Origin: a virus
Lineage: Duplodnaviria; Caudoviricetes
DNA: 31,325 bases
IMG/VR virus record: IMGVR_UViG_3300005805_000300
Coordinates: 1-31,325 of that record
Direction: 5' to 3' (one strand)
Below are positions 9,005-30,652 of this stretch, one piece after another. Below the pieces are notes generated by a model that did no database searches, was not told the origin of the DNA, and saw only the letters and a list, made by a program, of their open reading frames with translations. Positions within the stretch are counted from its first letter, which is position 1; every line of letters starts with the position of its first letter. A program made the position numbers and the translations under genes.

Positions 9005-9781
9005 CTATCTCTTCCGTCTGCTTGTTCTCTTTTTCCCTGCAGCCCTGCCAGCCCCTCTAACATTTTTCTTGGTCTTTCTTTGAGCACTGCTTGCCCTTTT
9101 AGCAGACGCCGCAGCTCTTGGTTTTTTTACCAGAGGTGGGCGAAAATCTCGAGTTGATAAATTTCTAGCAGGCGAAACGCCACCCACCCTATCGACTCTC
9201 GCAATACCTAATTTATCTAGCCCGGCCCTATCCCCTACCTGCCTTCTTGATCTACCAACCCTTACTCCACCTCTGCTCTGCATTCTTTTGTATGCTCGGT
9301 CCTCAATATCTCTATAGCCCTTTGGCTTGGTGAGACCGAGATAGGTTTGTGTTGTTTTGCCTCTTGGGTCATCGGAACGGGTCGTTTTCCCCTCGCTACG
9401 TTTTGAGAATTCCGTTGTCTCACTTCTTTTCATTATTTTTTTAGTTCGTTTATTCCTGGCGAGCTTAGCACCCTTTGAAGGCGCCCCTTTTTTAGTTACG
9501 CCCTGAGTGGAGTATCTTTGCATTTTGTAGACATCGCCATATTTACCACGCTTCAAATCTCGCTTTGTCACGCCAAAAATATCTGTAGCTAATTTGGCCA
9601 ACCTGTCATATTTCGCTTGATCTTTTTTGCTCAATTTTGCAGCTTGTACTTTTTTGCCAGCTTTTTTGGCAGCCTGAGCTCGACGCTTAAGCGCCTCTTC
9701 TTTTTCATTAAGGTTTCTTATTCCCTTATAGATAGCTGCAGCATCGTCTGCAATATCCGGGCCGTAACGTACACCTGGCAT
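9005..9781 (-). CDS. Very basic K/R-rich protein, putative nucleic-acid binding/condensing protein
   Basis: 258 aa, K/R/A-rich with a histone-H1/protamine-like tail (AAASAKRASSAQRKTKKNVRGAGRAAGKKRTSRRKR). SD AGGAG upstream. Confidence 0.7.
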   Translation of the reverse strand: MPGVRYGPDIADDAAAIYKGIRNLNEKEEALKRRAQAAKKAGKKVQAAKLSKKDQAKYDRLAKLATDIFGVTKRDLKRGKYGDVYKMQRYSTQGVTKKGAPSKGAKLARNKRTKKIMKRSETTEFSKRSEGKTTRSDDPRGKTTQTYLGLTKPKGYRDIEDRAYKRMQSRGGVRVGRSRRQVGDRAGLDKLGIARVDRVGGVSPARNLSTRDFRPPLVKKPRAAASAKRASSAQRKTKKNVRGAGRAAGKKRTSRRKR

Positions 9782-9855: not shown

Positions 9856-10416
9856 TTATCTATCTGGGTTTGGGGGAGACTCAAAAAATGATTTAGGTGA
9901 GTCATCTTTACCTGATGGAGCCTCAATTGGAACCCATGCTCGAGCGTAATTGTGTTCTTTTATTTTTCTGACCTTGATCAAACTGCTGTCAAGCATTAGC
10001 GATAATTCATCTGACTTCATGCATAGAAGGTCATCAAAATCTTGATTGGTATATCTTCCCGACCTTCTCATCTCCCTAATAATTCTTGATAATTTAGCTG
10101 CAACGACTACCGACTTGCCTCTATTGAGCTGTACGTGCATCATCATCGCTTCGATTTTGTCGCAATCGTGAAACACTACCGGGATCATCTCTCCATGTAT
10201 TTCTGATATTTTATCAATTTCCATAAATAGGTTGTATCTCTCGGAGCCATCAATTATTTCCCTCGTCTCCCGACGAACATGAAGTGGCTGTATAAAGCCG
10301 TACTGCATCAATGACGATGAAATAACGAAAAGTTCAGGTCGGAGAGTGTATGTTGACTTCCAGTCGGGGACAACTAATTGCCCTCGCTCAACTAATTCAA
10401 TTTTTATATTTTTCAT
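9856..10416 (-). CDS. ParB/Srx-domain protein, IbrB/YbdM-like
   Basis: SLMQYGFIQPLHV...EIIDGSERY...MMMHVQLNRGKS; translationally coupled to the PAPS-reductase-like gene. Confidence 0.8.
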   Translation of the reverse strand: MKNIKIELVERGQLVVPDWKSTYTLRPELFVISSSLMQYGFIQPLHVRRETREIIDGSERYNLFMEIDKISEIHGEMIPVVFHDCDKIEAMMMHVQLNRGKSVVVAAKLSRIIREMRRSGRYTNQDFDDLLCMKSDELSLMLDSSLIKVRKIKEHNYARAWVPIEAPSGKDDSPKSFFESPPNPDR

Positions 10417-11540
10417 AGTTCTATTTCTCTTTCAAGAATCCTGACAGCATTTGCTTTCGTTTTTGGGCCAACTGGCGTTGGTGAGTTCACATCTATTTCG
10501 TTCAGCATCAAGTTACGTATTAACCAGCTAATTGGGTAACCATAGGGGTCCTGAAGATGTTTTTTTCTAAATTTAGAGACATACACACGGGCTTCCATTT
10601 TTCTTCTATCGCCAACAAGATATTCGTCAATGAATTCAGAGGCGCCATCAAAACCCAGACCAGAATATCTTTCTATTAATTTTTCACTATCGAATTCTGG
10701 CCACCATCTTCGCTGCGCATCTATAAATGGAAAACATTCCCAAAGTCTGTCATAAAATTCAGGTTCAGTAGCTATGACGTCCCCTATGCGTCGAATTGCT
10801 GTTGCGTGAAGCGGTATGCCGACCCTAGTGTTGCTCCCGGTCGACATAGCTAGATCGTAATACTCACAATATTCTGCGTTATGCTCTTCAATGATAAATT
10901 TAAAAACATCATTAGTATTCCAGTCGTAAATTACTTTGGCAAATTTAAGTGGAATTCCAGCTTTTAGTTTGTATGGAGTGTTGATGTAGTTTTCGTGCAA
11001 TTTTTGCACAACAGAACGATATCTAACCATAGATTCACTTGCCCTTACCCCGGTCAAAAAAGCAACGTTCCCCTTTTTCCCTTGCATCGTGTAGTAGTCG
11101 GTTTGTTCTGGAAGTGATGTTTCATGAGATAAACCAAAATCATTTGCATTGATGGCAAATTGAGGCATATCTCTAAGCCACCTTTTTTGCTCTCCCCGCT
11201 GTTGACTCCAAAGAACAGTGGTTAGTCGATATCCAAGAACCCATATTTCTGCCGGGTATGGCAAACAATACCACTCCATATCCACCCAATCATAATTTCT
11301 GACTTTCTCTACATACTCAACAACGCTTGGGCTGACCATTTCTTCATCTCTAAATATTACTTTTACCGGGCCAAGATTTCGTTCTTCGTGAATTTCTTTC
11401 GCAAGATACAAAACTGCTGTTGAGTCTTTACCACCAGAAAATTGAACACAGACGGTATCAAACTGATCGTAGACGTGACGTATTCTTTGACGCGCAGCGT
11501 CAACACACGACATATCCAGAAACAGTCTCTGTCTTGTCAC
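10413..11540 (-). CDS. PAPS-reductase-family (PP-loop) protein, IbrA/YbdN-like
   Basis: PP-loop VQFSGGKDS, plus AARQRIRHVYD, FRDEE, TGVRASESMVRY, IYDWNTNDVF. Confidence 0.88.
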   Translation of the reverse strand: MTRQRLFLDMSCVDAARQRIRHVYDQFDTVCVQFSGGKDSTAVLYLAKEIHEERNLGPVKVIFRDEEMVSPSVVEYVEKVRNYDWVDMEWYCLPYPAEIWVLGYRLTTVLWSQQRGEQKRWLRDMPQFAINANDFGLSHETSLPEQTDYYTMQGKKGNVAFLTGVRASESMVRYRSVVQKLHENYINTPYKLKAGIPLKFAKVIYDWNTNDVFKFIIEEHNAEYCEYYDLAMSTGSNTRVGIPLHATAIRRIGDVIATEPEFYDRLWECFPFIDAQRRWWPEFDSEKLIERYSGLGFDGASEFIDEYLVGDRRKMEARVYVSKFRKKHLQDPYGYPISWLIRNLMLNEIDVNSPTPVGPKTKANAVRILEREIEL

Positions 11541-12364
11541 GGGGTGTGTTCTGAAATAAAAGATATTAATTTTTCCGCAACAGTATCGCCTTCAAGGCCT
11601 GCATCGGAACGTAACCATTTAATAAATGCGTACCATTCGGCTTGCTGTTGGGTGTTGTCAAAGACAATTGTGTACTGAACAACTGCTTGCGGAGCGGAGC
11701 GTGGAGAAACAGTTGTAGACCCCCTTACAACTGCATCATTTTGATCCATTTCTGGACGAATATTTATTCGTTGATTTCCCTCTTTGTCTTTGGTTATAGA
11801 CACCGTATTCATGTCTAGGGAGGTGTTCTTTGGTTTTTCGTCTTCCTCTTCTTCCTCTTCTTCCTCTTCTTCTTGATCTCTAATTATCACCGGGGGAACA
11901 TAGGAGCCAGAACTAACAACTTGATATTCATCTCTTATTGCAGATTGTTCAAGTTCAGCTAATTCAAACTCGTCCCAACCCAAACTGTCTATGAGTTCTG
12001 GATACTCCTCATGGATCTCCATAATAAATTCGCTAAGCATCTCTGGCTCTGTGTATCCAAGCTCCATGGTTCTGTTGTCAGCTATAGCAAACGCAATCGC
12101 TTTCTTGTTGTCTACGTCATAACTTACGGCGGCTATTTTGTCCCAACCAAGCTGCTTTGCCGCTTCAAGTTGATGATTTCCGGCAATAACCGTAGATGTT
12201 CCGTCGTCGTTAGGTCTTACGACTATTGGCTTGATTTGTCCAAACTCCTGATACGAAGCGATGATTGATTGCACATTGCCTTTTCTTGGATTCCCCTCTA
12301 GGGGGACAAGGGTGTTTACATCGACCGCAAGTTGTCTTAGTGATTCATGTATTTTGTCTGTCAT
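11537..12364 (-). CDS. ParB/Srx N-terminal domain protein with poly-Glu linker
   Basis: LVPLEGNPRKG...FGQIKPIVV...VIAGNHQLEAAKQLGW...AIADNRTMELG; internal QEEEEEEEEEEDE tract. Confidence 0.85.
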   Translation of the reverse strand: MTDKIHESLRQLAVDVNTLVPLEGNPRKGNVQSIIASYQEFGQIKPIVVRPNDDGTSTVIAGNHQLEAAKQLGWDKIAAVSYDVDNKKAIAFAIADNRTMELGYTEPEMLSEFIMEIHEEYPELIDSLGWDEFELAELEQSAIRDEYQVVSSGSYVPPVIIRDQEEEEEEEEEEDEKPKNTSLDMNTVSITKDKEGNQRINIRPEMDQNDAVVRGSTTVSPRSAPQAVVQYTIVFDNTQQQAEWYAFIKWLRSDAGLEGDTVAEKLISFISEHTP

Positions 12365-12366
12365 TT

Positions 12367-12702
12367 CTATACCTGCACCCTTACGTTTGCGTTAAGTGTC
12401 CGCATAGCATCTATCGATGTTCGTAGCGACAACAGAAGTTCGCGTTTTGTTTTTACTAAAGCTTCAGCACACTTGTGGTCGAAGTTTTGTTCATCCATTT
12501 TGTAATCGGCCCAAGCTTCTCGTTCTTTTATCGAACCTTTTGCTGATAGGTATTCTCGAGCCCAAGTAGATTTGTATAGCGCTTCTTTTTTTGCTGAGTC
12601 CATAGCTAGCGTTTCAAATTTTTCAGTTTCAATCTCAAGTCGGTCAAGAAGTCTGAGCAACTCTTGTTCTATGTCTACTTGACTAATTGGTGATGTTCTC
12701 AT
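12367..12702 (-). CDS. Helical hypothetical protein (possibly UvsY-like recombination mediator)
   Basis: 111 aa, coiled-coil character, overlaps the RuvC-like gene. Function inferred from size and context only. Confidence 0.45.
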   Translation of the reverse strand: MRTSPISQVDIEQELLRLLDRLEIETEKFETLAMDSAKKEALYKSTWAREYLSAKGSIKEREAWADYKMDEQNFDHKCAEALVKTKRELLLSLRTSIDAMRTLNANVRVQV

Positions 12703-13237
12703 TGTTTGATTCCTTTTTGTTTAGTGGTGTCCAATCTACTTTAGTTAGCGCATCAAGGTTTTGTGTAGGCCAATTATGTCTTTGTTTACCCAAATGAACA
12801 AGTCCCATTTCCTGCAATATCCAGGCGTCACATTTGTCGTCGGCCCCTGGATTGGACCAAATCTTTCCTGTCCTAGCAGATATCGCTGAAAGAACCTCAA
12901 GCTTTGAAGCATTGCCTTTACCCGTTGCAAATTTAGCCCTACATGTTGGTGGAACAATAACGCACGGAACCCCTATTTGCCAAAATAATAGTTTAACTAC
13001 CCCGCCCAATTCACCAATGGAAAAAGCTTGGCCACTACGGGACGCGAATGAGTAGCCCTCAAGAATTACTGCTTTCACATCAAGACTATTAATTAATCTT
13101 TCGATTTCTTGTTTTATTAAAAACAGCCTTTCCAATCCGGTCGCATCAAAAGACACTGTCCCGGTTTGTTCCCCGTACGAATACCCAGTAGAGGTTAACG
13201 AAAGATCGAGACCCAAAACGTCATTTATCACTGACAC
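12683..13237 (-). CDS. ruvC: RuvC-like Holliday junction resolvase
   Basis: VLGLDLSLTSTG, VILEGYS, IGELGGVVK, PPT..KFATGKGNASK, DDKCDA: the RuvC catalytic acidic residues. Confidence 0.88.
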   Translation of the reverse strand: MSVINDVLGLDLSLTSTGYSYGEQTGTVSFDATGLERLFLIKQEIERLINSLDVKAVILEGYSFASRSGQAFSIGELGGVVKLLFWQIGVPCVIVPPTCRAKFATGKGNASKLEVLSAISARTGKIWSNPGADDKCDAWILQEMGLVHLGKQRHNWPTQNLDALTKVDWTPLNKKESNNENITN

Positions 13238-13247
13238 ATACTAACCT

Positions 13248-13288
13248 AAAAGCAAAAACCCACCGAACATCTAGCTAGTCCGGTGGGT
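13248..13288 (-). terminator. Intrinsic terminator
   Basis: 11-bp stem ACCCACCGGAC/GUUCGGUGGGU running into a U-rich tail (UUUUGCUUUU). Confidence 0.8.
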
Positions 13289-13390
13289 GTTATTCAAAGC
13301 AGTGGTGGCTGCAATGAATACTTGCCGTGGTTAAACCACTCGATTCTTGGACCACCGCCTTTCTTCCGTGAAGGGTAGATATGGCTAGAC
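13248..13390 (-). ncRNA. Putative structured small RNA (~140 nt) with an extended complement to the 16S rRNA 3' end
   Basis: TGa-TAATCT -10 at 13405-13397; AGAAAGGCGGTGGTCCA at 13364-13348; internal stems; intrinsic terminator at 13288-13248. Confidence 0.6.
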
Positions 13391-13452
13391 GCAACAAGAT
13401 TATCATTTGAGTTAATAGGCAATAAGTGAAGAGCTTTTAAATAATATTATTT

Positions 13453-13502
13453 AAAAACAAACACGCAAAAGCCGAGTGAGTCCCCTCACCCGACTTTCGC
13501 GC
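13453..13502 (-). terminator. Intrinsic terminator hairpin
   Basis: GCGCGAAAGUCGGGUGAG-GGGA-CUCACUCGGCUUUUGCGU followed by GUUUGUUUUU. Confidence 0.8.
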
Positions 13503-13519
13503 CTATAACGGTCCTAAGT
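13453..13519 (-). ncRNA. Putative ~67-nt small RNA antisense to 23S rRNA helix 69
   Basis: -10 TAATCT at 13531-13526; single-stranded 5' leader ACUUAGGACCGUUAUAG; 18-bp stem with four G-U pairs and a GGGA (GNRA) loop; U-tract. Confidence 0.65.
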
Positions 13520-13577
13520 GCTACCAGATTACACCCGCAATAAATAGTGAAAGTGTTAACTATAAAACTATTAAAAA

Positions 13578-13922
13578 TTATTTTTCCCAACCATGTTTTG
13601 CAAGACCTAAATCAAAAGCGAGTTGTGGGTAATGACCAATCCTTACGTGACACGGCCTGCAGACAGCAAGAACATTTTCTTCATCAATAATTGAACCACC
13701 CTGTGAACGACGAACTATTTCGTGAACATCTCTGCTTAGGTGTTGGTTGTATGTTGCTTTTTTATCATGTGCGGCAAAAATTTTACAGGCCTGGCACATT
13801 GGTCTCTCTTTGAGTATTTTTTCTACGAATTTGCGACGCTCAACATATAGCTCTTCTGTTTTTTTGCTTCGTTTTTTTGGTAAGCCGCTTCGCTTTATTG
13901 GTTTATTTCTTCGAATCATCAC
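13578..13922 (-). CDS. HNH endonuclease
   Basis: CQAC...DVHEIVRRSQGGS...ENVLAVCRPCH: zinc-binding HNH motif with a basic N-terminus. Confidence 0.88.
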   Translation of the reverse strand: MMIRRNKPIKRSGLPKKRSKKTEELYVERRKFVEKILKERPMCQACKIFAAHDKKATYNQHLSRDVHEIVRRSQGGSIIDEENVLAVCRPCHVRIGHYPQLAFDLGLAKHGWEK

Positions 13923-20275: not shown

Positions 20276-23200
20276 ATGTCCACAGAAACATTTGAGTACA
20301 AATCCACGTCCATATCTGGCTCTCAACAAGTCAAGGGCGCAGTAAATTTGGATGAGGCTCAAGGTATTGTCGAATGTTTCGTCGCCGGTATTGGCAACAA
20401 AGACTCGGTTGGCGACGTTTGTGCGCCGGGAGCTTTCACAAAAAGCCTTCTTAGGCGCAAGCCTCGTGTGGTTTGGGGTCACAACTGGAATGACCCAATA
20501 GGTAAGGTCTTAGAAATTTATGAAGTTGGATCGACGGACCCACGCCTACCGCTAAAAATGAAGATGGCAGGAATTGGTGGTCTTTTCGCAAAAGTTCAAT
20601 TTAACTTAAATTCTGAAAAAGGCAAAGAAGCATTTGCTAATGTTGCCTTCTTTGGCGAAGAGCAAGAGTGGTCAATTGGCTATAAAACACTTAGAGCTCA
20701 ATTTGACCAGAAATCTCAAGCAAATATTCTTTATGAGGTTGAGTTGTACGAGGTAAGCCCTGTGCTTCACGGAGCAAACCAGCTCACCGGAACAATTTCG
20801 GTAAAAGCCGATGACTCCGCGTATGGTGGCGCTGTTGCATTGATGCCCGAAAGTGAGGACGATAACGGATTTGAGGAAATGGAAAAAGAATTGAGCAGAC
20901 TGCTCAACGCTAAGGTTTCCATAAATGCAATAGAGGGAGACAGCGTAATATTTACCCGACAGGAAGCTGTCGGCGCCAAGAAATATCGATGTGGATTCAT
21001 GAAGAACCACGGAAGATATATGTTCGGAATACCAGAAATGATTTCCACCCCGCAGAGTATGCGACCTATGTCTCCGATGCCGGTTGTATCAGGAAGACCG
21101 ATGCCGCCAAATGAGCCGCAGAGAATTGTAAGACCACAACAAATGCCCTCAATTCCTGTTGCCGTAAAACCAAGCAGCGACGGCGTAATGATGATTCCTC
21201 TTCCAGCGATTCGCTACGATTCTTCATCTAAACCACAAATAGATAAAAATAATCTCGATCAAGAAGAATCAGATTTGCGCGATGCGCTTTTAAAAATCGT
21301 AAAACGTCATGGAAAACTAGATGAAGATGGAGACGGAATCTGGGCGGGCTACTATCCACCAGAAAAAAATCCAGTCGCGTCAATCGGAGTTAAGTGCGCC
21401 AATTGTGTTTTCTATAAAGGCGGTTCTAGTTGTAAAATTCTTGCGCTCCCCGTGCACCCGGAAGGGAAATGCAGATTTGCGGTAATCCCAAACGGCGTTG
21501 TTGTTGGCAGCAGCTCCAAGGAGCTCGAAGACCTCGCAAGCGAAGCAGAGGACTCGATTATCGAAACACTTGAAATGAAATATCCAGGAGAATTTATTCT
21601 TGGTGTACTGAGAAACACTGTCGGTAGAAGAAAAAAGAGAAGACAGAAGTACAAGAATCTTTCCGAGTTCGGCGACGCAGATGACACCGGTGAAAAGGCC
21701 TACCTAATACCGGTAGAGCCAGATTTTGCGTTCAGTGTAAAGACAGCGCTGGATCCTATATTTGATTATCACAGAGCAGAAACATTTGTTGACAAAGAGG
21801 GCATAGTGATATCTTCCGGAGTGACGGAAGAATTGATTGATGCACTCGATACCGCCTTCCACAACATAAAAAAAAAATTCCAAGAACATAATGTAGAAGT
21901 CAAAGCGCTTGGTTACAGAATCGGTCGCTCACTTGCTTCAAGGGCGATAGATAGACCAAATATCGGCGGGAAAAAACGTGGTCGTGGATTTGGTATGCCG
22001 GAAGGCGACCTCAACCCAATGACCAGAGTTGACAAAAACAGAGATGGAACACTGTTTGACAACATACCAGGATGGGAACAACCAGACCCGACACCGGATG
22101 GACCTGGTTCAATCAATAACGCAAAACTTTCTTCTACTCAAAAAAGAGACATTGACAAAATTTCTGGAGAAGCTAATAAGATAAAACCACAAGACAGCGA
22201 AATAATAAAAAGTCGCAAACCAAAGTACGACGTCAACGAACTGGACGACATTCTTGGGGAAGATAAAAAGAAGCCATCTAAAAAACCTGTAGCAAAAGCA
22301 ACTCCGATTAAAAAAGAAAAAGCCAAACGCGGCGAGTACGACTTCTCTAAGGGTCCTAAAAAAGATAAGCCAATCAAAACCCCATCTCTCGCATCAGGTG
22401 AAGAAAAAGACAAGAAACCAAAGACTCCTTCGCGCAAGAAACCAAAGATGACCGATGAGGAAATCTACAAAAAAAGAATAACGACGAAGGCATCACTTCA
22501 GGAGCTAGCCGATGAGCTCGGCATCTCAAGAATGGAAGTGAGAAAGCGCGAACAGCGCCACATGCGCAAGTTGCGCAATGATAAACAAAGTCCTTCTCTT
22601 TCGTCTGGCGAAAAGAATGAGTGGGCGACGGCGCGTGGTTACGAACCAGACAGATTTGATCTCCGCGAGGCCGTAGAACAAATAGGTAGAGGGAACATAA
22701 TGGCCATTTCTGGTGGTCGTGTTGAAAGAAGAGGGAATGAAATGATTCTCCCTTCGACAAAAGACCAACAAGTCGTAATCGGATACAACGCAGTTCCTGA
22801 CCTTTACTACGTTCGAGCGGAACAAAAAGTTAATACTGGCAAAAACAAGGGTAAGAATAAAATTCTTGCTCAATGGGACGACGTCTATGCCGACGAGTTG
22901 GGTGAACTTGCGTATCAAGCAAGCCTAAAGCCGGCATTGTTAAACAGCGAAAACAAAGAGTATTGGAAGCTTGGAAAAGGCAATCAATTCACTGACAAAC
23001 TTATTGATAGGAGAAGCGGAAAACTCGTAGATGACGAAGTTTCAGAAAAACCTTCTTCTACTCCCTCAAAAGAAGAAACCCCATCTCTTTCTTCTGGTGG
23101 GAGAGGACGTGATTACTACAAATACGACATAGATACGAGCGACAACGGGAACGGCCTGCTTGATCAAATTCATGACGCTCTTGAAGAAAACCCACTACTC

Positions 23201-26200
23201 AAAGATGACATTACGGCCGACATAGCGGACATGCTTGGTGGAGACGGAATAGTTGAAGCAAATGGATTCGATACACGAAAAGCATTCAATCTCGTAACCG
23301 GAAGTGATGATGATTTCCAGGGCTACTTAGACGTCGTTGACGATGCAATGGATGCACTTAAAAATGGTTCACTTGCAAAGCATAAAGCGACGGTTCGTGA
23401 CGCCAATACAACTCTTGATTCGCTCAAATCCGGAAGCGATGAAGCCGGAAAACTTGAAGCATTGAGAGACAGGTCGTATGAGTGGATTGGTGATATTAAT
23501 AAATATTCACGAATATCCACAATTAAAGATAAAAAGAACATCGAAGCAAATGATGTTGCAGCACGGATGGTTTCAAAAGAGCAAGACGCTCTCTGGAATG
23601 CTCGTTCCGCTATAACAGAAAAATACATAGAAGATGTCATCTCTGCAAAGAAAGAATCAAAGCGAAGGGTTCCAATTGATGATGTGGATACAGAAAAAAT
23701 TCCAGATTACGAATTAGCTCTTTCTTCTGGAAGCGTATTTAAAAACAAGCCAGCATCAAAAACATTAGATAGCAAATCGGATGGATTATCTCTCTCGTCT
23801 GGGGAAAATAAAAAAATCTATGACGAAATAGGTAAATCAATTCTCGAGGCACTTATCGAGATGCAAAAAAATCCACAATCCAGATACTGGGATGTTCCGT
23901 GGAGAACCCCTACTCTTTATGCAAAAAACCCAACAAAGGGTCGCTTATATCAGGGCATGAATGCATTGCTTCTCGCAAACTCTCATAGACAAAATCAATA
24001 CAGAGGAAATTTTTGGGCTGGAAAATCTCAGTGGGCAAAATTTGGCGGAACTGTAGAAGATGGAAAGAGCGGAGTAAATATTCTCGTTCCAAGAGAGACC
24101 CCAACTGGCAAAACTTTCATTGTACAAACTGTCTACAACCTGGACGACATTGAAGGCTTGCCAGATTCTTACGTCAAAAAATTATTAGATGTGGGCAAAG
24201 AGCGTCTTGACCCAGCAACCAAAATCAAAGACGCAGAGTCTGTCGTTGACGAAATTAAACCAGAGATTAGGTTCGGTGGAGATTCTGCGTATTACTCAAT
24301 CACGAATGATCACATTCAGATGCCCCCATACGAAATGTTTAAATCCCCTGAGCAATATTACTCAACACTTTTGCACGAGCTAACGCACTGGACTGGCGGA
24401 AAATCCCGTCTTGCAAGAAAGCAAGTAGGTCTACAAAAAGACGAAGAAGCATATTCATTTGAGGAATTAATTGCCGAAATGGGTTCGTCATTCCTTCTTG
24501 CAGCACTTGGTATCACGCCAGAAGTAAGACAAGACCACGTTGTTTATATTGAAAGTTGGATTTCAAATCTCACAAAGGACCCAAGTGCATTTATTAGGGC
24601 AATGAACCAAGCACAACAAGCTGCTGATTGGGTTATGGACAGATCACCCACATTGAGAAGACTTGCCGGCGTACCAGATAGCGAAAGAAAAGGCAAACCT
24701 GATGCAACCAAGGAAGTTGCGGAAGCCGCAACCGAATCTGTTGATGCAGTAAAAGATTCGACTCCATCTCTATCTTCTGGTGCACAAGTCGGTGTACGGA
24801 AAGTAAAAGAGCTTCAATACTTTGGCGACGAAGATCAATATGGCTCTGGAGTTGTTGATAGAGATTCACGGGGACGTATTCTTGATGCGGCTGGCGCTCT
24901 TTCTCTTTCTAGCGGCGCGAAACCGATTAAAAGTGTAGATGGGAAAATAACAGTACCAAGACCTAGCGACAATGTTCCATACAGAGAAAAATACAAATTT
25001 CTCGCTAATGAATTTGAACCAACAGAGCAACAAAAAGCATCAATGGATGTACTGCAACACATGCTCAAAGAAAAGATAAATGGCATCATCGCTATTGGTG
25101 CTGGGGCTGGTTCGGGCAAAACAACAAACTTAAAGCAAAATGCGCGTGCCGTTGCCGCAATTTTCCCTGGCAAACAAATTTACTATACCGTATTCAATAG
25201 GGGAAATGCTAAAGACGGTAACCGAGTAATGCCAAGGAATACCGGCGTAGCAACAAGCAATCAAATTGCATACTGGTCGCTAGTTCTTGGAACCGGTGAC
25301 AAATTTTACGGAACAGGCACTGCAAAAAAAATACAACTTGGAGTCGGACCGAGGGAAAAAGTATATCTACGGGGTGCAAAGAAAAATACGGTAAAAGAAT
25401 ATACAGATTTTGAAGGGAACAAGCTTCAATTTACAGGTGTAATACCCGGATATACAGATTTGGGTTATACGAGCTACGATTCGGAACCAAATATCATAGA
25501 AAGACTTGAGAAGCTTGGGCTTCTTAGTGACGCCGACGAGCTTCTCGGCGCTGATTATTCTCTTGCAGAAATGTTGAAGAAGGCTCTTATGAGATTTGCA
25601 GAGAGCGAAGACCCCAAATTGTCCGCGAAACATTTTTTATTGCGCGATGTGGAAATGATCTCGGCCTTACTGGATGGCAAACCAGTACCTACTGAAGAAA
25701 CGATACCTAAAGAAGTTGTAGAAATCGCTCAAAAGTTATGGGATGAGACGGTAGACCCGAACAGCAATGTTTTAATTCCTCAGGAATATCAAATAAAAAT
25801 GTGGGCCCTCACCAAGCCAGACCTAAGAACAGATAAGGGACTTATTGGACATAGACCAAACGAAACAATTTTTGACAGAATAAAACTTGGTACGGTCGAA
25901 GATTTAGATTCCGGGAAAATCAAAATTGGAAACATAATTGAATTTACCGTGCCAGAAACCGGCGAAAAAGTTGCCGCAGTTATCCGCAAACTTAATCCGC
26001 CATCACAAAAAGAAACAAAAAAAGGCGAGCTGACCGGAAAAAGACAAGTAACTGGTTCTGTTTCTATTGTTTCAGTAACTGCCAACAATCCGCTAGAAGT
26101 GTTTATGTTTGATGAAGCTCAAGACGTGAACCCAGTTATGGCAAAAGTGCTAGCTGATAACGCTGCGAATTTACCAATCATAATGGTCGGTGATTCGCGT

Positions 26201-29200
26201 CAAGCCATTTACGGATTTAGAGGGGCCATGGACGCCCTAGATAAAGCAAATGCGACATTTAGGCTCCCCTTAACACGTTCATTTAGGTATGGAAGGCTAC
26301 CGGCATACCTAGCGAATGTTGTGTTGATGCAAGGAAATATTGATGACTTAAATTTCCATAGGGAAAATGAGACTTTAGACAGACACACATTTCATCACGT
26401 AGTTGGCGAAGCTCAAAATGTTGTAATCAATGCACTGAAAATTACTGGTCCAGATGGTAAAAAACTACTCCCCAAGGAAGAACTCGACAAAAAACTCAAA
26501 TTTATAGAAGTGAAATACAAACTCAAGGGACGCGCAGTCAGCTTTGATGGGAAAAGTGAAAAAGAAATAAAAGAACTTGTTGACAAGCTATATGAAGAGC
26601 ACGTTCCTAAAGCGAATGGTCAAATCGTGGAAAACATGACCAATCCTCAAGCCGTCTTAACATCAACAAATGCTGGCGTAATGGAAGAGGCTCTCAATGT
26701 AGTTGAAGGGGGAATACTTAAGCATCAAATTGCATATCTCGACCTTCTTGGTATTGAGGACATAACAGACGAAATAGAATTAGCTAATAGATTGAAAAAA
26801 ATTTCTGAAATATACACATTGGACGGACTTGAAATAAATCTTCTTGATATCGCGGCAAACGACGGAAAAGATGCGATGCTAAAAACCATCAATGAATTAA
26901 GAGAGGAGCACGCTCCTGGTGGTGCTGATGGAAAAATTCCAGCTATAGGAATCCCGGCTGACACTCACGAAAAACTCTATGACTTCTACAATCAACTAGA
27001 TTGGATTATGGGGGATCTTGATAACAAATTTGGCGTTCAGGGGCGGCCAAAAGCATCGAAATTATTGAAAGATGTCTGGAGATTCGACAAAAAGAAAAAT
27101 AGATATCCAACAAAAGAGGAAATGGTCAGGAAAATAGAGAGAATGGTTCAAGGCGGATCACAGGAGCTTAAAACCTGGTATAGGCTTGCGTACCCTCCAA
27201 TCGGAAAAGGCATACCAAGAGGGGCAAGATTCTTTAAAGATTTACTAAGACCAAACGGACAGGTATATAAAGACCTGAACGGGAATGAACAAAGATATCA
27301 GGGACTAAGGCCAATGCGCGAGGGGATTGAGCTCCCCAACATGGAGTCCGGTAAGGACCACATTACGGCAGATCTTATAAAGGAAACAGCGAAAGAACCA
27401 TTAGGCGAAAGCAAGTCTGGAAGACGCAGAAAAATTTCATGGATAATACCCAAGAAAGATGAAGGTGATTCGTCTGGTGAGGTATTCGTAAAACTAGAAC
27501 TTGACGAAAATGGCAAGTCAACCGGAGGCGTGATTATTGCGGGGAATGGCGCTCATGGTGGAAAGTATAAGTTTAGAAAATGGAATAACAAGAAAAAAGA
27601 ATGGGACCCGATACAAAGCGGGCAGCCCGACAAGAAGGGGTTCGATTACTACGAAGACTTAGCAAAGGTTGCGAAAAAACTGAAAGCTGAATACCCAGAC
27701 GCGGTAATTGAATTTAAGCAGGGCCTCGTAAAACAGGACGGCAAAGCTTTAACATTCCCCCCAGACACCCCCGATGATTTTAAGCCAAAACTAAATCCGA
27801 AAACAGGAAATCCTGACTCCTCCGTCGAAAGAGCATCCTTGCCTGGGTGGGTCGTGAGGGGGAGGAACCCGGAAGAGACCGCACTTATTGCCAACGAATT
27901 TGGTAACAGGGTCAGAAAATTAGCGGCCGAAGGAAATACCGACGTTGACGTTATGACTGTTCATATTGCTAAAGGTAGAGAATGGAAGAGAGTAAGGCTT
28001 TCTGACGACTTCCGAGACCCAGAATCCCTGGTCCCAACTCTCCCACCGGAAGTTTTAGAAAACCTTAAACCAAAAGAGAGACTCCGGGTTCTCAGAGAAC
28101 TCGAGATGATGAAACGAGAAGAGCACAACAAGGTTTATATAGCAATAACTAGAGCACAGGAGCAAATTGATCTTGGTGTTGCTATAACAAAATATTACTT
28201 CTTAGATGAGATACCCAATACTGCTTTAACTGCTGATATCCAAGAGATCAGGAAGAGGATAGAAGATCTAGATAAAGAAATAAGCAAACTCCAAAAAAAA
28301 CCCAACAGCGATACAGATCCAGCAATCAAAAAAGAAATAAATAGACTCAAAAAAGAAAAAATCGAACAGAATAAAATCCTTAATACGTCTCGAGATATGC
28401 TTCAAGCTCAAAAAGTTACTGCAGCTAAAGCAAAAATTGTCGAGAACCCAGACGGCATATACGACGACCTTCAGGCCCCAGAAGGCTTCATTACCCCTTA
28501 TTTGGCCGATACGGAAGAGGCCAGAGCAAAACGCAAAAAGCGTCAAGAAGAATTAGATCAGTCGGTTAAGAGGTACTTTGAGTCACAGCGTCAAAAAGAA
28601 AAACAACAAGCAACCCCGGATGACGATGATGAAGCGATGGTCGAAGACGACTCCGGCGGGCTTGATACTGGTGAGCCAAACTTTGTAGACATATCTGGAC
28701 CAGAAGATGACAGTGGAATAAGTAGCGATGATCAAGACGACGACGGAGACGTTCAATCGCTATCTCTTTCGTCTGGAGCTAAAAAGAAAACAAACAGAAG
28801 AAATAGACGCCTCCCCTACAGTCAACAAGATAGACAGAATCTCGCTGATGGAAATATTATCCGTTCGAAAAAAATTCCTAAAAAACGCAAACCAGGACCA
28901 TCAACTCAAGAATTTGATGATTTAGCGCTTGCTTCCGGAGCGAAAACACCAGAGGGGAGATACGCAAGAAGACTGCGAGCAATAAGCCTCTCTAGCGGAA
29001 GTGATGATATTGGTGCAGGAGCAAAAACTCGACAAATTAACGGCAAGAGATTTGCTGCAACAATTTCTAGGCCTCGAGATCTTGCCGCCATAAGAGTGGA
29101 TGGTGACCCAAACAAAAATGACGAAGTGAAAAACAAACTCGAATATGCAATGAAATTTTGGCGTGGAGTGCGTGAACGCGGCATCGCCCTGGATCCGGAC

Positions 29201-30652
29201 GATGTCTCAGCCGAAAGAAAAGACGTTGAAATCAAAAATTCAATCTCTTCTATTTCAAAAAGAATGTCCACGAGACCAAAAGTTAAAATTGGTAAAGTTT
29301 CATCTAATCAAATAAAAGATGACGTCAACCCTGATGAGTGGTTCGTTCCTGTTTCTAAATTAAAAGACTCGATAAGAATACCAACAGAATTTTCCAATAT
29401 TCCGGCCGACCCCGACTCTCCGGACGGTAGAAAAATTGCTCGCTGGACGCAGACACGCCCACTTTCCAATGACGAACTAGGGAAAATGCTTGCCCTAAGC
29501 AAGACAGACATAAAAAAATTATCTGATGATGATTCTGGCATCACTCACGACTCTGTTCGATTTCTGTTGGCTGAAATAGGTAAACAGAAAGGATTTGAAG
29601 CTTGGAGACTATTTGCTCCGACCTCTTTGAAAGAAGAAGGCGTACAAGAAATGTCGCCCGCAGATAAATTTGTCGCAAATCTAGAAAGAGCCAACATGCG
29701 TGACAGATTCATAATCGAAGCATTTGGCAAAGATGCCTTCCCCTACTGGATAGATAAGGAAGAAAATACTGTTATTGGTCAGAAAGAATATTCAACCCTT
29801 GGCGAAGTCAGTGAAATGGGCAAATTTAGGTCCACTGGAATATTCAGCAAAAAACGCGGAGCATCAGAATTCGGCTCAACCGCCGAAGAAATGCTCCTTG
29901 AGGAAGCGGTGTTTGGCGGCGATGATGGTCCGGGCGACTTCGTGAAGGAAGCAATTATAAATTCCGTATCAGCACCATCAGGTAAAACATCTAGAGAACA
30001 ATTTGATATCAGCCAACTTCTTCAGGCATTAAAAATAAACGAATCAGAAGACTGGTATAAGGAGTTGCGTAAAAGAATGATGAAGGCATTTTCCACAGAC
30101 GATGTTGGTCTTACATCCAAGGAAGTGGCCCGACAGTGGGAGGCCGGTGGGGTTCCTACGACATACATTAATGAAATGATCAGAACAGGCTTGATTCCTG
30201 ATGCTAAATCGGTTTGGAAAAAAGATGGTGTCGGGGAAAAACTAGACAGCGAATTGGCTGCTTCAAAGCACTCTGTCTACGAAGCCCTTTTTGAGTTTAC
30301 GCAAGCAAAACACGCCGCAGATAAAGCCAAAAACACTAGACGAAACAGAGATTACATTCTTGGTTCTACCGATTTTACTGTCTCGCATAAAGGGGTGGCC
30401 GCCAGGAAGGGGGCAACATTCTCAAAGAAAACCGGAGATGAAAGAAGATTTAGCCAAAGCGAACTACAGGATGTTGTAAATCGTTTTAATGAAATATTTG
30501 GAACCAATTACAAAATAGACGACATTTTCAGTGCAGAGCAATTACGCAACGCAACAAAAAGGCTCCGCGAAGAAGGTAAAACCCTATACGGCGAAGAACC
30601 TTTAGAGCTGGGTCAACGAGTTGTTCTTAAGAAAGATAAGAATAATAAATAA
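20276..30652 (+). CDS. 3458-aa polyvalent protein: HK97-type prohead protease + HiPIP-like Cys motif + sigma4-like HTH + ArdC-N/MPTase + UvrD-like SF1 helicase + unknown domains
   Basis: Protease: KDSVGDVCAPGAF, VWGHNW, WSIGY, LYEVSPVLHGAN. ArdC: NPTKGRLYQGMNALLL, LLHELTHWTG, YSFEELIAEMGS. Helicase: AGAGSGKTT, DEAQD, VGDSRQAIYGFRGA, LTRSFRYG, TVHIAKGREW, VYIAITRA. Confidence 0.92.
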   Translation: MSTETFEYKSTSISGSQQVKGAVNLDEAQGIVECFVAGIGNKDSVGDVCAPGAFTKSLLRRKPRVVWGHNWNDPIGKVLEIYEVGSTDPRLPLKMKMAGIGGLFAKVQFNLNSEKGKEAFANVAFFGEEQEWSIGYKTLRAQFDQKSQANILYEVELYEVSPVLHGANQLTGTISVKADDSAYGGAVALMPESEDDNGFEEMEKELSRLLNAKVSINAIEGDSVIFTRQEAVGAKKYRCGFMKNHGRYMFGIPEMISTPQSMRPMSPMPVVSGRPMPPNEPQRIVRPQQMPSIPVAVKPSSDGVMMIPLPAIRYDSSSKPQIDKNNLDQEESDLRDALLKIVKRHGKLDEDGDGIWAGYYPPEKNPVASIGVKCANCVFYKGGSSCKILALPVHPEGKCRFAVIPNGVVVGSSSKELEDLASEAEDSIIETLEMKYPGEFILGVLRNTVGRRKKRRQKYKNLSEFGDADDTGEKAYLIPVEPDFAFSVKTALDPIFDYHRAETFVDKEGIVISSGVTEELIDALDTAFHNIKKKFQEHNVEVKALGYRIGRSLASRAIDRPNIGGKKRGRGFGMPEGDLNPMTRVDKNRDGTLFDNIPGWEQPDPTPDGPGSINNAKLSSTQKRDIDKISGEANKIKPQDSEIIKSRKPKYDVNELDDILGEDKKKPSKKPVAKATPIKKEKAKRGEYDFSKGPKKDKPIKTPSLASGEEKDKKPKTPSRKKPKMTDEEIYKKRITTKASLQELADELGISRMEVRKREQRHMRKLRNDKQSPSLSSGEKNEWATARGYEPDRFDLREAVEQIGRGNIMAISGGRVERRGNEMILPSTKDQQVVIGYNAVPDLYYVRAEQKVNTGKNKGKNKILAQWDDVYADELGELAYQASLKPALLNSENKEYWKLGKGNQFTDKLIDRRSGKLVDDEVSEKPSSTPSKEETPSLSSGGRGRDYYKYDIDTSDNGNGLLDQIHDALEENPLLKDDITADIADMLGGDGIVEANGFDTRKAFNLVTGSDDDFQGYLDVVDDAMDALKNGSLAKHKATVRDANTTLDSLKSGSDEAGKLEALRDRSYEWIGDINKYSRISTIKDKKNIEANDVAARMVSKEQDALWNARSAITEKYIEDVISAKKESKRRVPIDDVDTEKIPDYELALSSGSVFKNKPASKTLDSKSDGLSLSSGENKKIYDEIGKSILEALIEMQKNPQSRYWDVPWRTPTLYAKNPTKGRLYQGMNALLLANSHRQNQYRGNFWAGKSQWAKFGGTVEDGKSGVNILVPRETPTGKTFIVQTVYNLDDIEGLPDSYVKKLLDVGKERLDPATKIKDAESVVDEIKPEIRFGGDSAYYSITNDHIQMPPYEMFKSPEQYYSTLLHELTHWTGGKSRLARKQVGLQKDEEAYSFEELIAEMGSSFLLAALGITPEVRQDHVVYIESWISNLTKDPSAFIRAMNQAQQAADWVMDRSPTLRRLAGVPDSERKGKPDATKEVAEAATESVDAVKDSTPSLSSGAQVGVRKVKELQYFGDEDQYGSGVVDRDSRGRILDAAGALSLSSGAKPIKSVDGKITVPRPSDNVPYREKYKFLANEFEPTEQQKASMDVLQHMLKEKINGIIAIGAGAGSGKTTNLKQNARAVAAIFPGKQIYYTVFNRGNAKDGNRVMPRNTGVATSNQIAYWSLVLGTGDKFYGTGTAKKIQLGVGPREKVYLRGAKKNTVKEYTDFEGNKLQFTGVIPGYTDLGYTSYDSEPNIIERLEKLGLLSDADELLGADYSLAEMLKKALMRFAESEDPKLSAKHFLLRDVEMISALLDGKPVPTEETIPKEVVEIAQKLWDETVDPNSNVLIPQEYQIKMWALTKPDLRTDKGLIGHRPNETIFDRIKLGTVEDLDSGKIKIGNIIEFTVPETGEKVAAVIRKLNPPSQKETKKGELTGKRQVTGSVSIVSVTANNPLEVFMFDEAQDVNPVMAKVLADNAANLPIIMVGDSRQAIYGFRGAMDALDKANATFRLPLTRSFRYGRLPAYLANVVLMQGNIDDLNFHRENETLDRHTFHHVVGEAQNVVINALKITGPDGKKLLPKEELDKKLKFIEVKYKLKGRAVSFDGKSEKEIKELVDKLYEEHVPKANGQIVENMTNPQAVLTSTNAGVMEEALNVVEGGILKHQIAYLDLLGIEDITDEIELANRLKKISEIYTLDGLEINLLDIAANDGKDAMLKTINELREEHAPGGADGKIPAIGIPADTHEKLYDFYNQLDWIMGDLDNKFGVQGRPKASKLLKDVWRFDKKKNRYPTKEEMVRKIERMVQGGSQELKTWYRLAYPPIGKGIPRGARFFKDLLRPNGQVYKDLNGNEQRYQGLRPMREGIELPNMESGKDHITADLIKETAKEPLGESKSGRRRKISWIIPKKDEGDSSGEVFVKLELDENGKSTGGVIIAGNGAHGGKYKFRKWNNKKKEWDPIQSGQPDKKGFDYYEDLAKVAKKLKAEYPDAVIEFKQGLVKQDGKALTFPPDTPDDFKPKLNPKTGNPDSSVERASLPGWVVRGRNPEETALIANEFGNRVRKLAAEGNTDVDVMTVHIAKGREWKRVRLSDDFRDPESLVPTLPPEVLENLKPKERLRVLRELEMMKREEHNKVYIAITRAQEQIDLGVAITKYYFLDEIPNTALTADIQEIRKRIEDLDKEISKLQKKPNSDTDPAIKKEINRLKKEKIEQNKILNTSRDMLQAQKVTAAKAKIVENPDGIYDDLQAPEGFITPYLADTEEARAKRKKRQEELDQSVKRYFESQRQKEKQQATPDDDDEAMVEDDSGGLDTGEPNFVDISGPEDDSGISSDDQDDDGDVQSLSLSSGAKKKTNRRNRRLPYSQQDRQNLADGNIIRSKKIPKKRKPGPSTQEFDDLALASGAKTPEGRYARRLRAISLSSGSDDIGAGAKTRQINGKRFAATISRPRDLAAIRVDGDPNKNDEVKNKLEYAMKFWRGVRERGIALDPDDVSAERKDVEIKNSISSISKRMSTRPKVKIGKVSSNQIKDDVNPDEWFVPVSKLKDSIRIPTEFSNIPADPDSPDGRKIARWTQTRPLSNDELGKMLALSKTDIKKLSDDDSGITHDSVRFLLAEIGKQKGFEAWRLFAPTSLKEEGVQEMSPADKFVANLERANMRDRFIIEAFGKDAFPYWIDKEENTVIGQKEYSTLGEVSEMGKFRSTGIFSKKRGASEFGSTAEEMLLEEAVFGGDDGPGDFVKEAIINSVSAPSGKTSREQFDISQLLQALKINESEDWYKELRKRMMKAFSTDDVGLTSKEVARQWEAGGVPTTYINEMIRTGLIPDAKSVWKKDGVGEKLDSELAASKHSVYEALFEFTQAKHAADKAKNTRRNRDYILGSTDFTVSHKGVAARKGATFSKKTGDERRFSQSELQDVVNRFNEIFGTNYKIDDIFSAEQLRNATKRLREEGKTLYGEEPLELGQRVVLKKDKNNK
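22382..28999 (+). repeat. Ten dispersed peptide-level repeats [PLI][SA]L[SA]SG
   Basis: Copies start at 22382, 22592, 23081, 23714, 23786, 24764, 24899, 28760, 28922 and 28982, with varied synonymous codons. Confidence 0.9.

Follow-up and report, generated by a model that had tools for sequence, protein, structure and literature searches.

Why should a phage, which itself needs ribosomes, carry beside its ruvC gene two predicted small RNAs with tracts complementary to the rRNAs of both ribosomal subunits? The DNA analysed, hereafter the window, is the whole stretch of 31,325 nt; completeness of this 31-kb fragment is put at about 20%, and its genes for terminase, portal, sheath, tube, a Rad52-like protein, a PD-(D/E)XK nuclease, HNH and RuvC are those of a large contractile-tailed phage. 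The source is likely a large phage of lake actinobacteria; the complete relatives have genomes of 151-170 kb, and no terminase relative above 43% was found among GenBank phages. The actinobacterial host suggested by the preliminary description is supported by WhiB genes in 4/4 complete relatives (the window fragment itself is not shown to hold one) and in 5/5 records of a further check, WhiB being described as a marker of actinobacterial hosts in PMC6802176.

On the minus strand, a gap of 340 nt lies between an HNH endonuclease-like gene (13578..13922; PHROG E 1e-10), which is outside the RNA system, and a RuvC-like Holliday junction resolvase gene (ruvC, 12683..13237); both serve here as flanking context. 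The gap contains no ORF of 50 aa, no tRNA (ARAGORN) and no Rfam match; at the gathering threshold Rfam gave 0 matches across the window, and the best E value in the region was 2.4. The -10 box of ruvC and its likely leaderless GTG start (13231) occupy 13229..13243 on the same strand, as judged from the sequence and from a spacing that is equal in relatives.

Elsewhere in the window, a 3458-aa protein (20276-30652, plus strand) with prohead protease, sigma-70 region 4, ArdC N-terminal, zincin and UvrD helicase domains appears from its sequence to be polyvalent protein-like. A trio of ParB-like, PAPS-reductase-like and ParB-like genes (9856-12364, minus strand) is likely a DNA-modification module, and a very basic 258-aa protein without a Pfam match (9005-9781, minus strand) is possibly a DNA- or RNA-condensing virion protein.

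Two predicted RNAs in the gap between HNH and ruvC

Unit 1, the one nearer HNH, is a predicted RNA of ~60 nt (13455..13519, minus strand; model R2) without an ORF of 50 aa or an Rfam match. Its predicted start, A13519, lies 6 nt past a TAATCT -10 box of the TAnnnT class (13526..13531), and an upstream hexamer, TTAACA, is found 22 nt before this box (13554..13559). The RNA would begin with a 16-nt tract (13503..13518), followed with gap 0 by a terminator-like hairpin of 18 bp with a GNRA loop and then a T-rich tail (13463..13502; z -6.0). The tract is the exact complement of E. coli rrlA 1915-1930 as fetched, which we take to be 1914-1929 in the usual 23S numbering, and covers the 3′ half of the helix 69 loop, the 3′ strand of the helix and the link to helix 70; it matches Bacillus rRNA exactly as well. 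No exact rRNA match in the window, or in the complete relatives G001 and G002, is longer. An rRNA match of 16 nt was reached by 6/20,000 Markov samples of the 340-nt region, and none of 40 shuffles of the tract had an equally good site in E. coli rRNA. Since the chance expectation for the whole window is ~0.065, the case for unit 1 rests on conservation and not on this single match. In co-folding with the general-type stem, the net binding of unit 1 to 23S after the opening of helix 69 was -19.1 kcal/mol, the two windows containing the target site ranked first of 163 rRNA windows, and the duplex of seed and rRNA together with the hairpin of unit 1 formed a continuous helix of 34 bp. In phage G001, no second site was found within 3 mismatches of the tract.

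Unit 2 is a longer predicted RNA of ~140 nt (13250..13390, minus strand; model R1), with two-sided changes in 10/14 consensus pairs. Its predicted start, G13390, again lies 6 nt past TAATCT (13402-13397), here within an extended -10 (TGn-TAnnnT, 13397..13405) that recurs in 21/21 distinct promoters of the window's subgroup, and the upstream hexamer TTCACT (13425..13430) stands 22 nt before the -10. For a 5′ segment (13383..13389) two alternative partners are possible: the loop of the 3′ hairpin, which would make a pseudoknot, and the 3′ strand of 16S helix 45. Behind it follow a 17-nt tract complementary to the 16S 3′ tail (13348..13364), which in this copy has no start codon behind it; a bulged hairpin, P2, and then GGCAA (13322..13344; 100% of cells paired, 3/6 pairs with two-sided change); the inner stem-loop of P3 (13299..13312), whose loop, judging by fold and alignment, can mask the tract; and a terminator-like 3′ hairpin (13258..13288; 7/10 pairs with two-sided change). 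The predicted duplex of the tract with the Actinomycetes 16S end spans 17 nt and contains one mismatch and one G-U; the 16S ends of Bacillota, Bacteroidota and alpha- and beta-proteobacteria pair likewise. Among all duplexes with the 16S tail it is the strongest in both the window and G001, and takes fifth place in G002. Because SD-like tracts are common, and 13/40 shuffles had an equally good site somewhere in E. coli rRNA, this tract alone is not improbable. Thus the complements to a 30S and a 50S site that the preliminary description pointed out are both present, while its argument that chance is unlikely does not carry over to the second tract by itself. A 38-aa frame across unit 2 was rejected, as it begins in the promoter and is lost in relatives, and the frames of 20-47 aa in the region are not kept in the relatives compared.

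The elements on which a tandem cassette had been proposed, namely two copies of TAATCT with 6 nt to a purine, two upstream TTCACT...TATTGC sequences and two hairpins, are all found on the minus strand (TTCACT at 13551-13546 and 13430-13425, TATTGC at 13542-13537 and 13424-13419), and each predicted RNA has a promoter and a 3′ hairpin of its own. However, the common TAATCT, although real in the window, is not conserved (0/30 distinct unit 1 relatives and 5/21 distinct unit 2 promoters), and its identity in both units is a coincidence. Both upstream motifs are likewise present, but the hexamers standing in register are TTAACA and TTCACT rather than two copies of TTCACT. The hexamer TTnAC(A/T), 22 nt before the -10, occurs in 27/51 distinct unit 1 promoters and 21/27 distinct unit 2 promoters, and being common to both it suggests co-regulation; genome-wide, the hexamer at this spacing is not enriched before leaderless genes. 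Between the two RNAs themselves only a weak, broken duplex of -12 kcal/mol is predicted.

Conservation of the two units in related phages

Relatives were drawn from the best 80 of 573 ruvC-bearing viral loci, in which model R2 finds unit 1 in 46 and model R1 finds unit 2 in 39. The tract of unit 1 is exact in 29/46 homologues (18/30 distinct), its flanks drift, and the rRNA complementarity does not decay neutrally, as the mean column identity is 0.93 in the tract versus 0.54 in the 13 nt before it. A TAnnnT box with variable inner bases stands 7-8 nt before the tract in most copies; therefore, the tract would be the 5′ end of the predicted RNA. The hairpin, 16-22 pairs long across copies, has two-sided changes in 13/17 consensus pairs and directly abuts the tract in 66/78 distinct contexts, including phage contexts without ruvC or HNH. 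It contains G-U pairs in 77/78 contexts, which fixes the antisense strand for unit 1, and because a good U tail is missing from many copies it is more than a terminator.

A scan for the 16-nt tract followed by a non-rRNA base, whose right boundary is set by the pattern, yet is equal in the ruvC-anchored set, gave at least 119 matches in viral DNA, with ~160 stretches estimated. Among the 119 matches listed, 91 adjoin ruvC or HNH homologues and 14 show other architectures, in some of which the complement is longer or permuted. A control pattern with two Actinomycetes-stem bases gave 3 viral matches, of which 2 are identical and none has the layout. In 596 Gb of cellular genomes the tract scan returned 34 matches; 7 are rRNA-like, 4 are extended and belong to Myxococcota or delta-proteobacteria, and the remainder look like chance. 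No relative of unit 1 was found among GenBank phages (4 matches at E 8), and whole G001 and G002 contain no other exact rRNA match of at least 16 nt, their matches of 14-15 nt being without the promoter-tract-hairpin layout.

The variation within unit 1 bears on its partner. Changes from A to G and from C to T preserve pairing as G-U, and in one lineage (L029, L034, L038, L040) the pairing is shifted towards helix 70-71. Two of its members, L038 and L040, and three further contigs carry GGATGG, the complement of the Actinomycetes-type helix 69 stem, so that the L038 and L040 tracts score -32.5 and -32.9 kcal/mol against Actinomycetes rRNA versus -28.8 and -29.2 against the general type. This switch is a single event, yet pairing with rRNA would predict exactly such a change. 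One subgroup places C opposite A1916, and another has only 11 exact nt; a host variant as the cause of the former is not supported, as G-bearing rRNA is rare (8 metagenome records, none clearly actinobacterial).

Other forms were seen around this family. In other phages, L086, L128, L132, L152, L153 and L162 have the 16-nt tract with the helix 70-71 complement relocated into the 3′ hairpin loop, a permuted two-piece antisense, and L099, L108, L131, L165, L171 and L125 are promoter-tract-hairpin RNAs with complements of 23-28 nt including G-U pairs. In L028 and L036 the slot upstream of ruvC holds other short RNAs, missed by models R1 and R2, with complements of 11-13 nt to 23S about 1923-1935 and 1941-1951 (by eye). 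The RNAs of L036, L028, L108 and L165 reach further into helices 70-71.

Could the element act at the level of DNA, as a homing-endonuclease or integration site, or as a guide that directs the two adjoining nucleases, HNH and RuvC, to host rDNA? In the window HNH lies directly upstream and RuvC downstream, and the tract overlaps the I-CeuI site. However, the HNH linkage is independent of unit 1 (HNH near ruvC in 31/46 loci with unit 1 versus 26/34 without), the tract also occurs in other gene contexts, and no integrase gene was found in the window. The strand-specific G-U pairs, the wobble and bulge variants, the promoter spacing and the permuted forms all fit RNA-RNA pairing, and we regard a DNA-level role as extremely unlikely.

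For unit 2, none of 500 shuffles reached its paired fraction, a lenient control. GGTG(G/A)T(C/T), the complement of GAUCACC at 16S 1530-1536, is found in 39/39 homologues, an invariance that is partly circular because 30/39 loci matched the pattern used for training, the 9 outside the pattern's matches being L032, L047, L048, L050, L059, L064, L065, L066 and L067. An intact GGAGG is found in 0/39. The pseudoknot between the 5′ end and the terminator loop appears in ~22/38 rows (68% of cells), only in the window's subgroup; the middle hairpin is variable, its loop often, but not always, being able to mask the tract, and some homologues retain the tract without the masking partner. In L068, L070, L071 and L080 the slot upstream of ruvC holds a diverged unit-2-like RNA, below the model threshold, in which GGTGATCC is perfectly complementary to the 16S tail and is immediately preceded by 8 nt of anti-23S sequence.

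The two units co-occur frequently, as 33/80 loci have both (31 adjacent, 2 at 2.7 kb), 13 unit 1 only, 6 unit 2 only and 28 neither. These counts are inflated by kinship, and dereplication at 95% RuvC identity leaves 54 loci, of which 17 have both, 10 unit 1 only, 5 unit 2 only and 22 neither. Both sides of the RuvC tree include loci with the pair, and its order differs between groups, unit 1 leading in one and following in another. Nevertheless, an obligate cassette does not agree with the 13 loci with unit 1 only, which include the complete G004 and the 91%-complete G016, both without a unit 2 match; the records with unit 2 only are mostly short fragments. The pair is common, not obligate.

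The start codons of unit 2 raise another explanation, namely that unit 1 alone acts, and that unit 2 has a very strong ribosome-binding site and is a decoy or a small mRNA (a short peptide, a ribosome sponge or an SD-stabilised RNA), adjacent through the common promoter class and slot. Of 49 distinct copies, 18 have a start codon right behind the tract (ATG 16, TTG 2) and hence may act as a ribosome-binding site, opening frames of 13-19 codons, 14 in most; ordinary phage genes show look-alike strong SD sites, 13 loci carry unit 1 only, and unit 2 was near the anti-helix-69 RNAs of other phage contexts in 0/22 loci (fetched flanks). However, 31/49 copies, the window's included, are without the start codon, between subgroups the short frames agree neither in phase nor in sequence, GGAGG is never intact, and the units stay adjacent despite the swap of their order, which makes this explanation rather unlikely. 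The ATG-bearing copies of L027, L039, L053, L062, L239 and their kin, with the 14-codon frame in two different phases, have palindromes at the unit 2 5′ end and in the terminator loop.

Both units are thus conserved predicted small-RNA genes, with tracts complementary to 23S helix 69-70 and to the 16S tail. From the patterns described, the unit 1 RNA very probably pairs with rRNA, and the unit 2 RNA probably does.

Host rRNA type and the ribosomal stage at which the RNAs would act

The helix 69 stem of cultured Actinomycetes leaves two mismatches with the window's unit 1 tract in 5/5 examined, and net binding falls to -7.6 kcal/mol versus -19.1 for the general type. Because of these mismatches, pairing as proposed would require the window's host to have a general-type helix 69 stem, and Acidimicrobiia are the obvious candidates.

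A conserved cellular RNA of ~170 nt was encountered in Myxococcia (L225:2890-3100 of Myxococcus eversor, L232, L226:2977-3161 and L397-L405). It carries 23S helices 69-71 in the sense orientation, split into permuted pieces from which the helix 69 stem could be re-formed; a long match occurs in about 17/151 Myxococcia genomes, and its folding z-scores are weak on both strands. In L226 it sits between two tRNAs of a 15-tRNA array, adjoining a Ro60/TROVE gene; TROVE was not found in the two Myxococcus genomes. This RNA would pair with the unit 1 tract, and the phage RNA might accordingly be imagined to neutralise a host non-coding RNA that mimics helices 69-71, as decoy or sensor, rather than to act on the ribosome. 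We know of no such mimic in actinobacteria, rRNA would outnumber it, and the phage variants track rRNA lineage differences; a target of this kind is very unlikely.

If the partner is rRNA, mature ribosomes could be the target. The preliminary description proposed that the RNAs reprogram or protect host translation in a phage that uses leaderless mRNAs. On this model the joining of subunits and SD-dependent initiation would be blocked on mature ribosomes, to the advantage of leaderless phage mRNAs. In line with this, both G001 and G002 show a TAnnnT peak at 6-7 nt from gene starts, on their upstream side, and ruvC itself looks leaderless; loss of the anti-SD has also been postulated to favour leaderless mRNA. 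However, by crude ORF calls SD-led genes outnumber leaderless-looking ones in both relatives, 50 versus 30 of 167 genes in G001 and 53 versus 17 of 143 in G002, and the window's sheath and tube genes carry SD-like sites. With SD-led genes more numerous and SD-like sites before structural genes, the phage would itself suffer if the anti-SD were blocked throughout. Helix 69 is required in the 70S ribosome for any message, and its block would presumably also hit 70S initiation on leaderless mRNA. A switch to leaderless phage mRNAs is not supported by these gene counts, and action through leaderless mRNAs is quite improbable.

Protection is another conceivable role: the RNAs would cover rRNA sites cut by host abortive-infection or toxin-antitoxin RNases and spare the ribosomes during infection. 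The invariant bases of unit 2 would pair across C^ACCU, the single MazF-mt11/RelE1 cut site in the mycobacterial 16S tail (PMC12274833, PMC12620021), and MazF-mt3 cuts both the anti-SD and helix/loop 70 (PMC5408214); the conserved sense RNA of Myxococcia, which in one case adjoins Ro60 within a tRNA array, could also be read this way. On the other hand, the window's unit 1 misses the UUCCU site in helix/loop 70 by ~11 nt, an oligomer on helix 69 or the anti-SD is itself inhibitory (PMC7038079), and our literature search gave no bacterial nuclease that cuts helix 69, Ribocin being described for eukaryotic ribosomes. We therefore hold protection to be unlikely.

We instead favour, tentatively, a stall of ribosome assembly by pairing at late-maturing sites of immature subunits. 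The helix 70-71 region is buried in the mature 50S. In the maps of 45S particles helices 69-71 are missing, and they are among the last elements to mature (PMC11100780). In the 16S tail, GAUCA and CCUCC are bound by Era (PMC10582724). Bacterial growth or translation is inhibited by PNAs directed at helix 69 and at the 16S mRNA-binding site (PMC7038079). Both predicted RNAs would be expressed and bind free or immature host subunits, stalling the last steps of assembly, and the working 70S ribosomes would stay available to the phage. The 5′ seed of unit 1 could invade helix 69 and stack on its own 18-bp hairpin, giving a nicked 34-bp helix that would prevent the docking of helices 69-71 and bridge B2a; host RNase III might cut this helix, making RNase III-dependent decay possible. 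Unit 2 would occupy GAUCACC, to which Era binds, and retain 30S precursors. The phage might profit in that nucleotides, phosphate and energy otherwise spent on ribosomes would go into its genome of 150-170 kb. In the phage records examined, bS21 genes were found in 0/5 and RNase III genes in 0/5.

The stalling model is favoured because the tract is conserved, ~160 stretches stand against 3 control matches, the seed has switched with the rRNA type, and changes preserve G-U pairing; also because tract and hairpin abut, the target site ranks first, the promoter hexamer is common to both units, and the phage needs SD-competent ribosomes. It is weakened by the Actinomycetes mismatches, the A1916 and 11-nt subgroups, the single-unit loci and the copies with start codons. 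Both targets being late-maturing and open in precursors, the model would resolve the paradox of a phage that itself needs ribosomes. The evidence listed fits immature and mature subunits alike as the target. In its general form, the proposal, which we put forward with less than even confidence, is that phages use natural antisense RNAs of several architectures against host rRNA, and that here a co-regulated pair grips the last-maturing sites of both subunits, helices 69-71 and the Era site, so that ribosome production would be shut down or dismantled by RNA alone, with a seed re-tuned to the rRNA type of the host.

Comparison with known RNA systems

RybB and the OmrA/B-type RNAs are trans-acting base-pairing sRNAs built of a seed and a terminator. 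The units described here have in common with them an own promoter, an unpaired conserved 5′ seed, a 3′ hairpin and a short size, and by sequence they show the features of a trans-acting sRNA: independent promoter, 3′ hairpin, apparently no coding content and a conserved single-stranded seed, whose predicted target is rRNA. They differ in that the conserved complement is to rRNA, not to mRNA, and in that the unit 1 hairpin is twice the length of the usual sRNA terminator and abuts the seed without a gap.

Small nucleolar RNAs and archaeal sRNAs (C/D, H/ACA, U3, U8) pair with pre-rRNA. They resemble the present units in a complement of 10-20 nt to a conserved, modified rRNA region and in a probable access to rRNA during maturation, but these units have neither C/D nor ACA boxes (by eye in alignments A1 and A3) nor an Rfam match, are of viral origin, and would act in a bacterial host, where the partner proteins are not known to occur. 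Unit 2 has its complementarity to the 16S tail in common with strong ribosome-binding sites and STAB-SD elements, and a start codon follows in 18/49 copies; unlike them, unit 2 never has an intact GGAGG, centres its pairing on GAUCACC, has conserved structure behind the tract and has no long downstream message to protect.

For rRNA as the target class of a seed-plus-hairpin sRNA we know of no precedent. Our literature searches, with most subscription papers outside their reach, returned no natural RNA, of phages or of bacteria, that is described as pairing with rRNA; by term search rRNA is not mentioned in a 2025 review of phage sRNAs (PMC12197685), and the main-text terms of two surveys (PMC10690425, Fremin 2023; PMC5737381, Weinberg 2017) gave no description, their supplements possibly listing unnamed candidates. 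A parallel is man-made: synthetic PNAs (PMC7038079) have the same two rRNA targets, which are reachable and whose binding inhibits, whereas the present RNAs are encoded by natural genes. As unit 1 matches E. coli and Bacillus rRNA exactly, the question is testable at once with a 60-nt construct. If the RNAs bind, they would reveal a new way in which phages take over their hosts, late subunit assembly could be studied with natural probes, and antisense antibacterials directed at rRNA would have evolved templates to build on.
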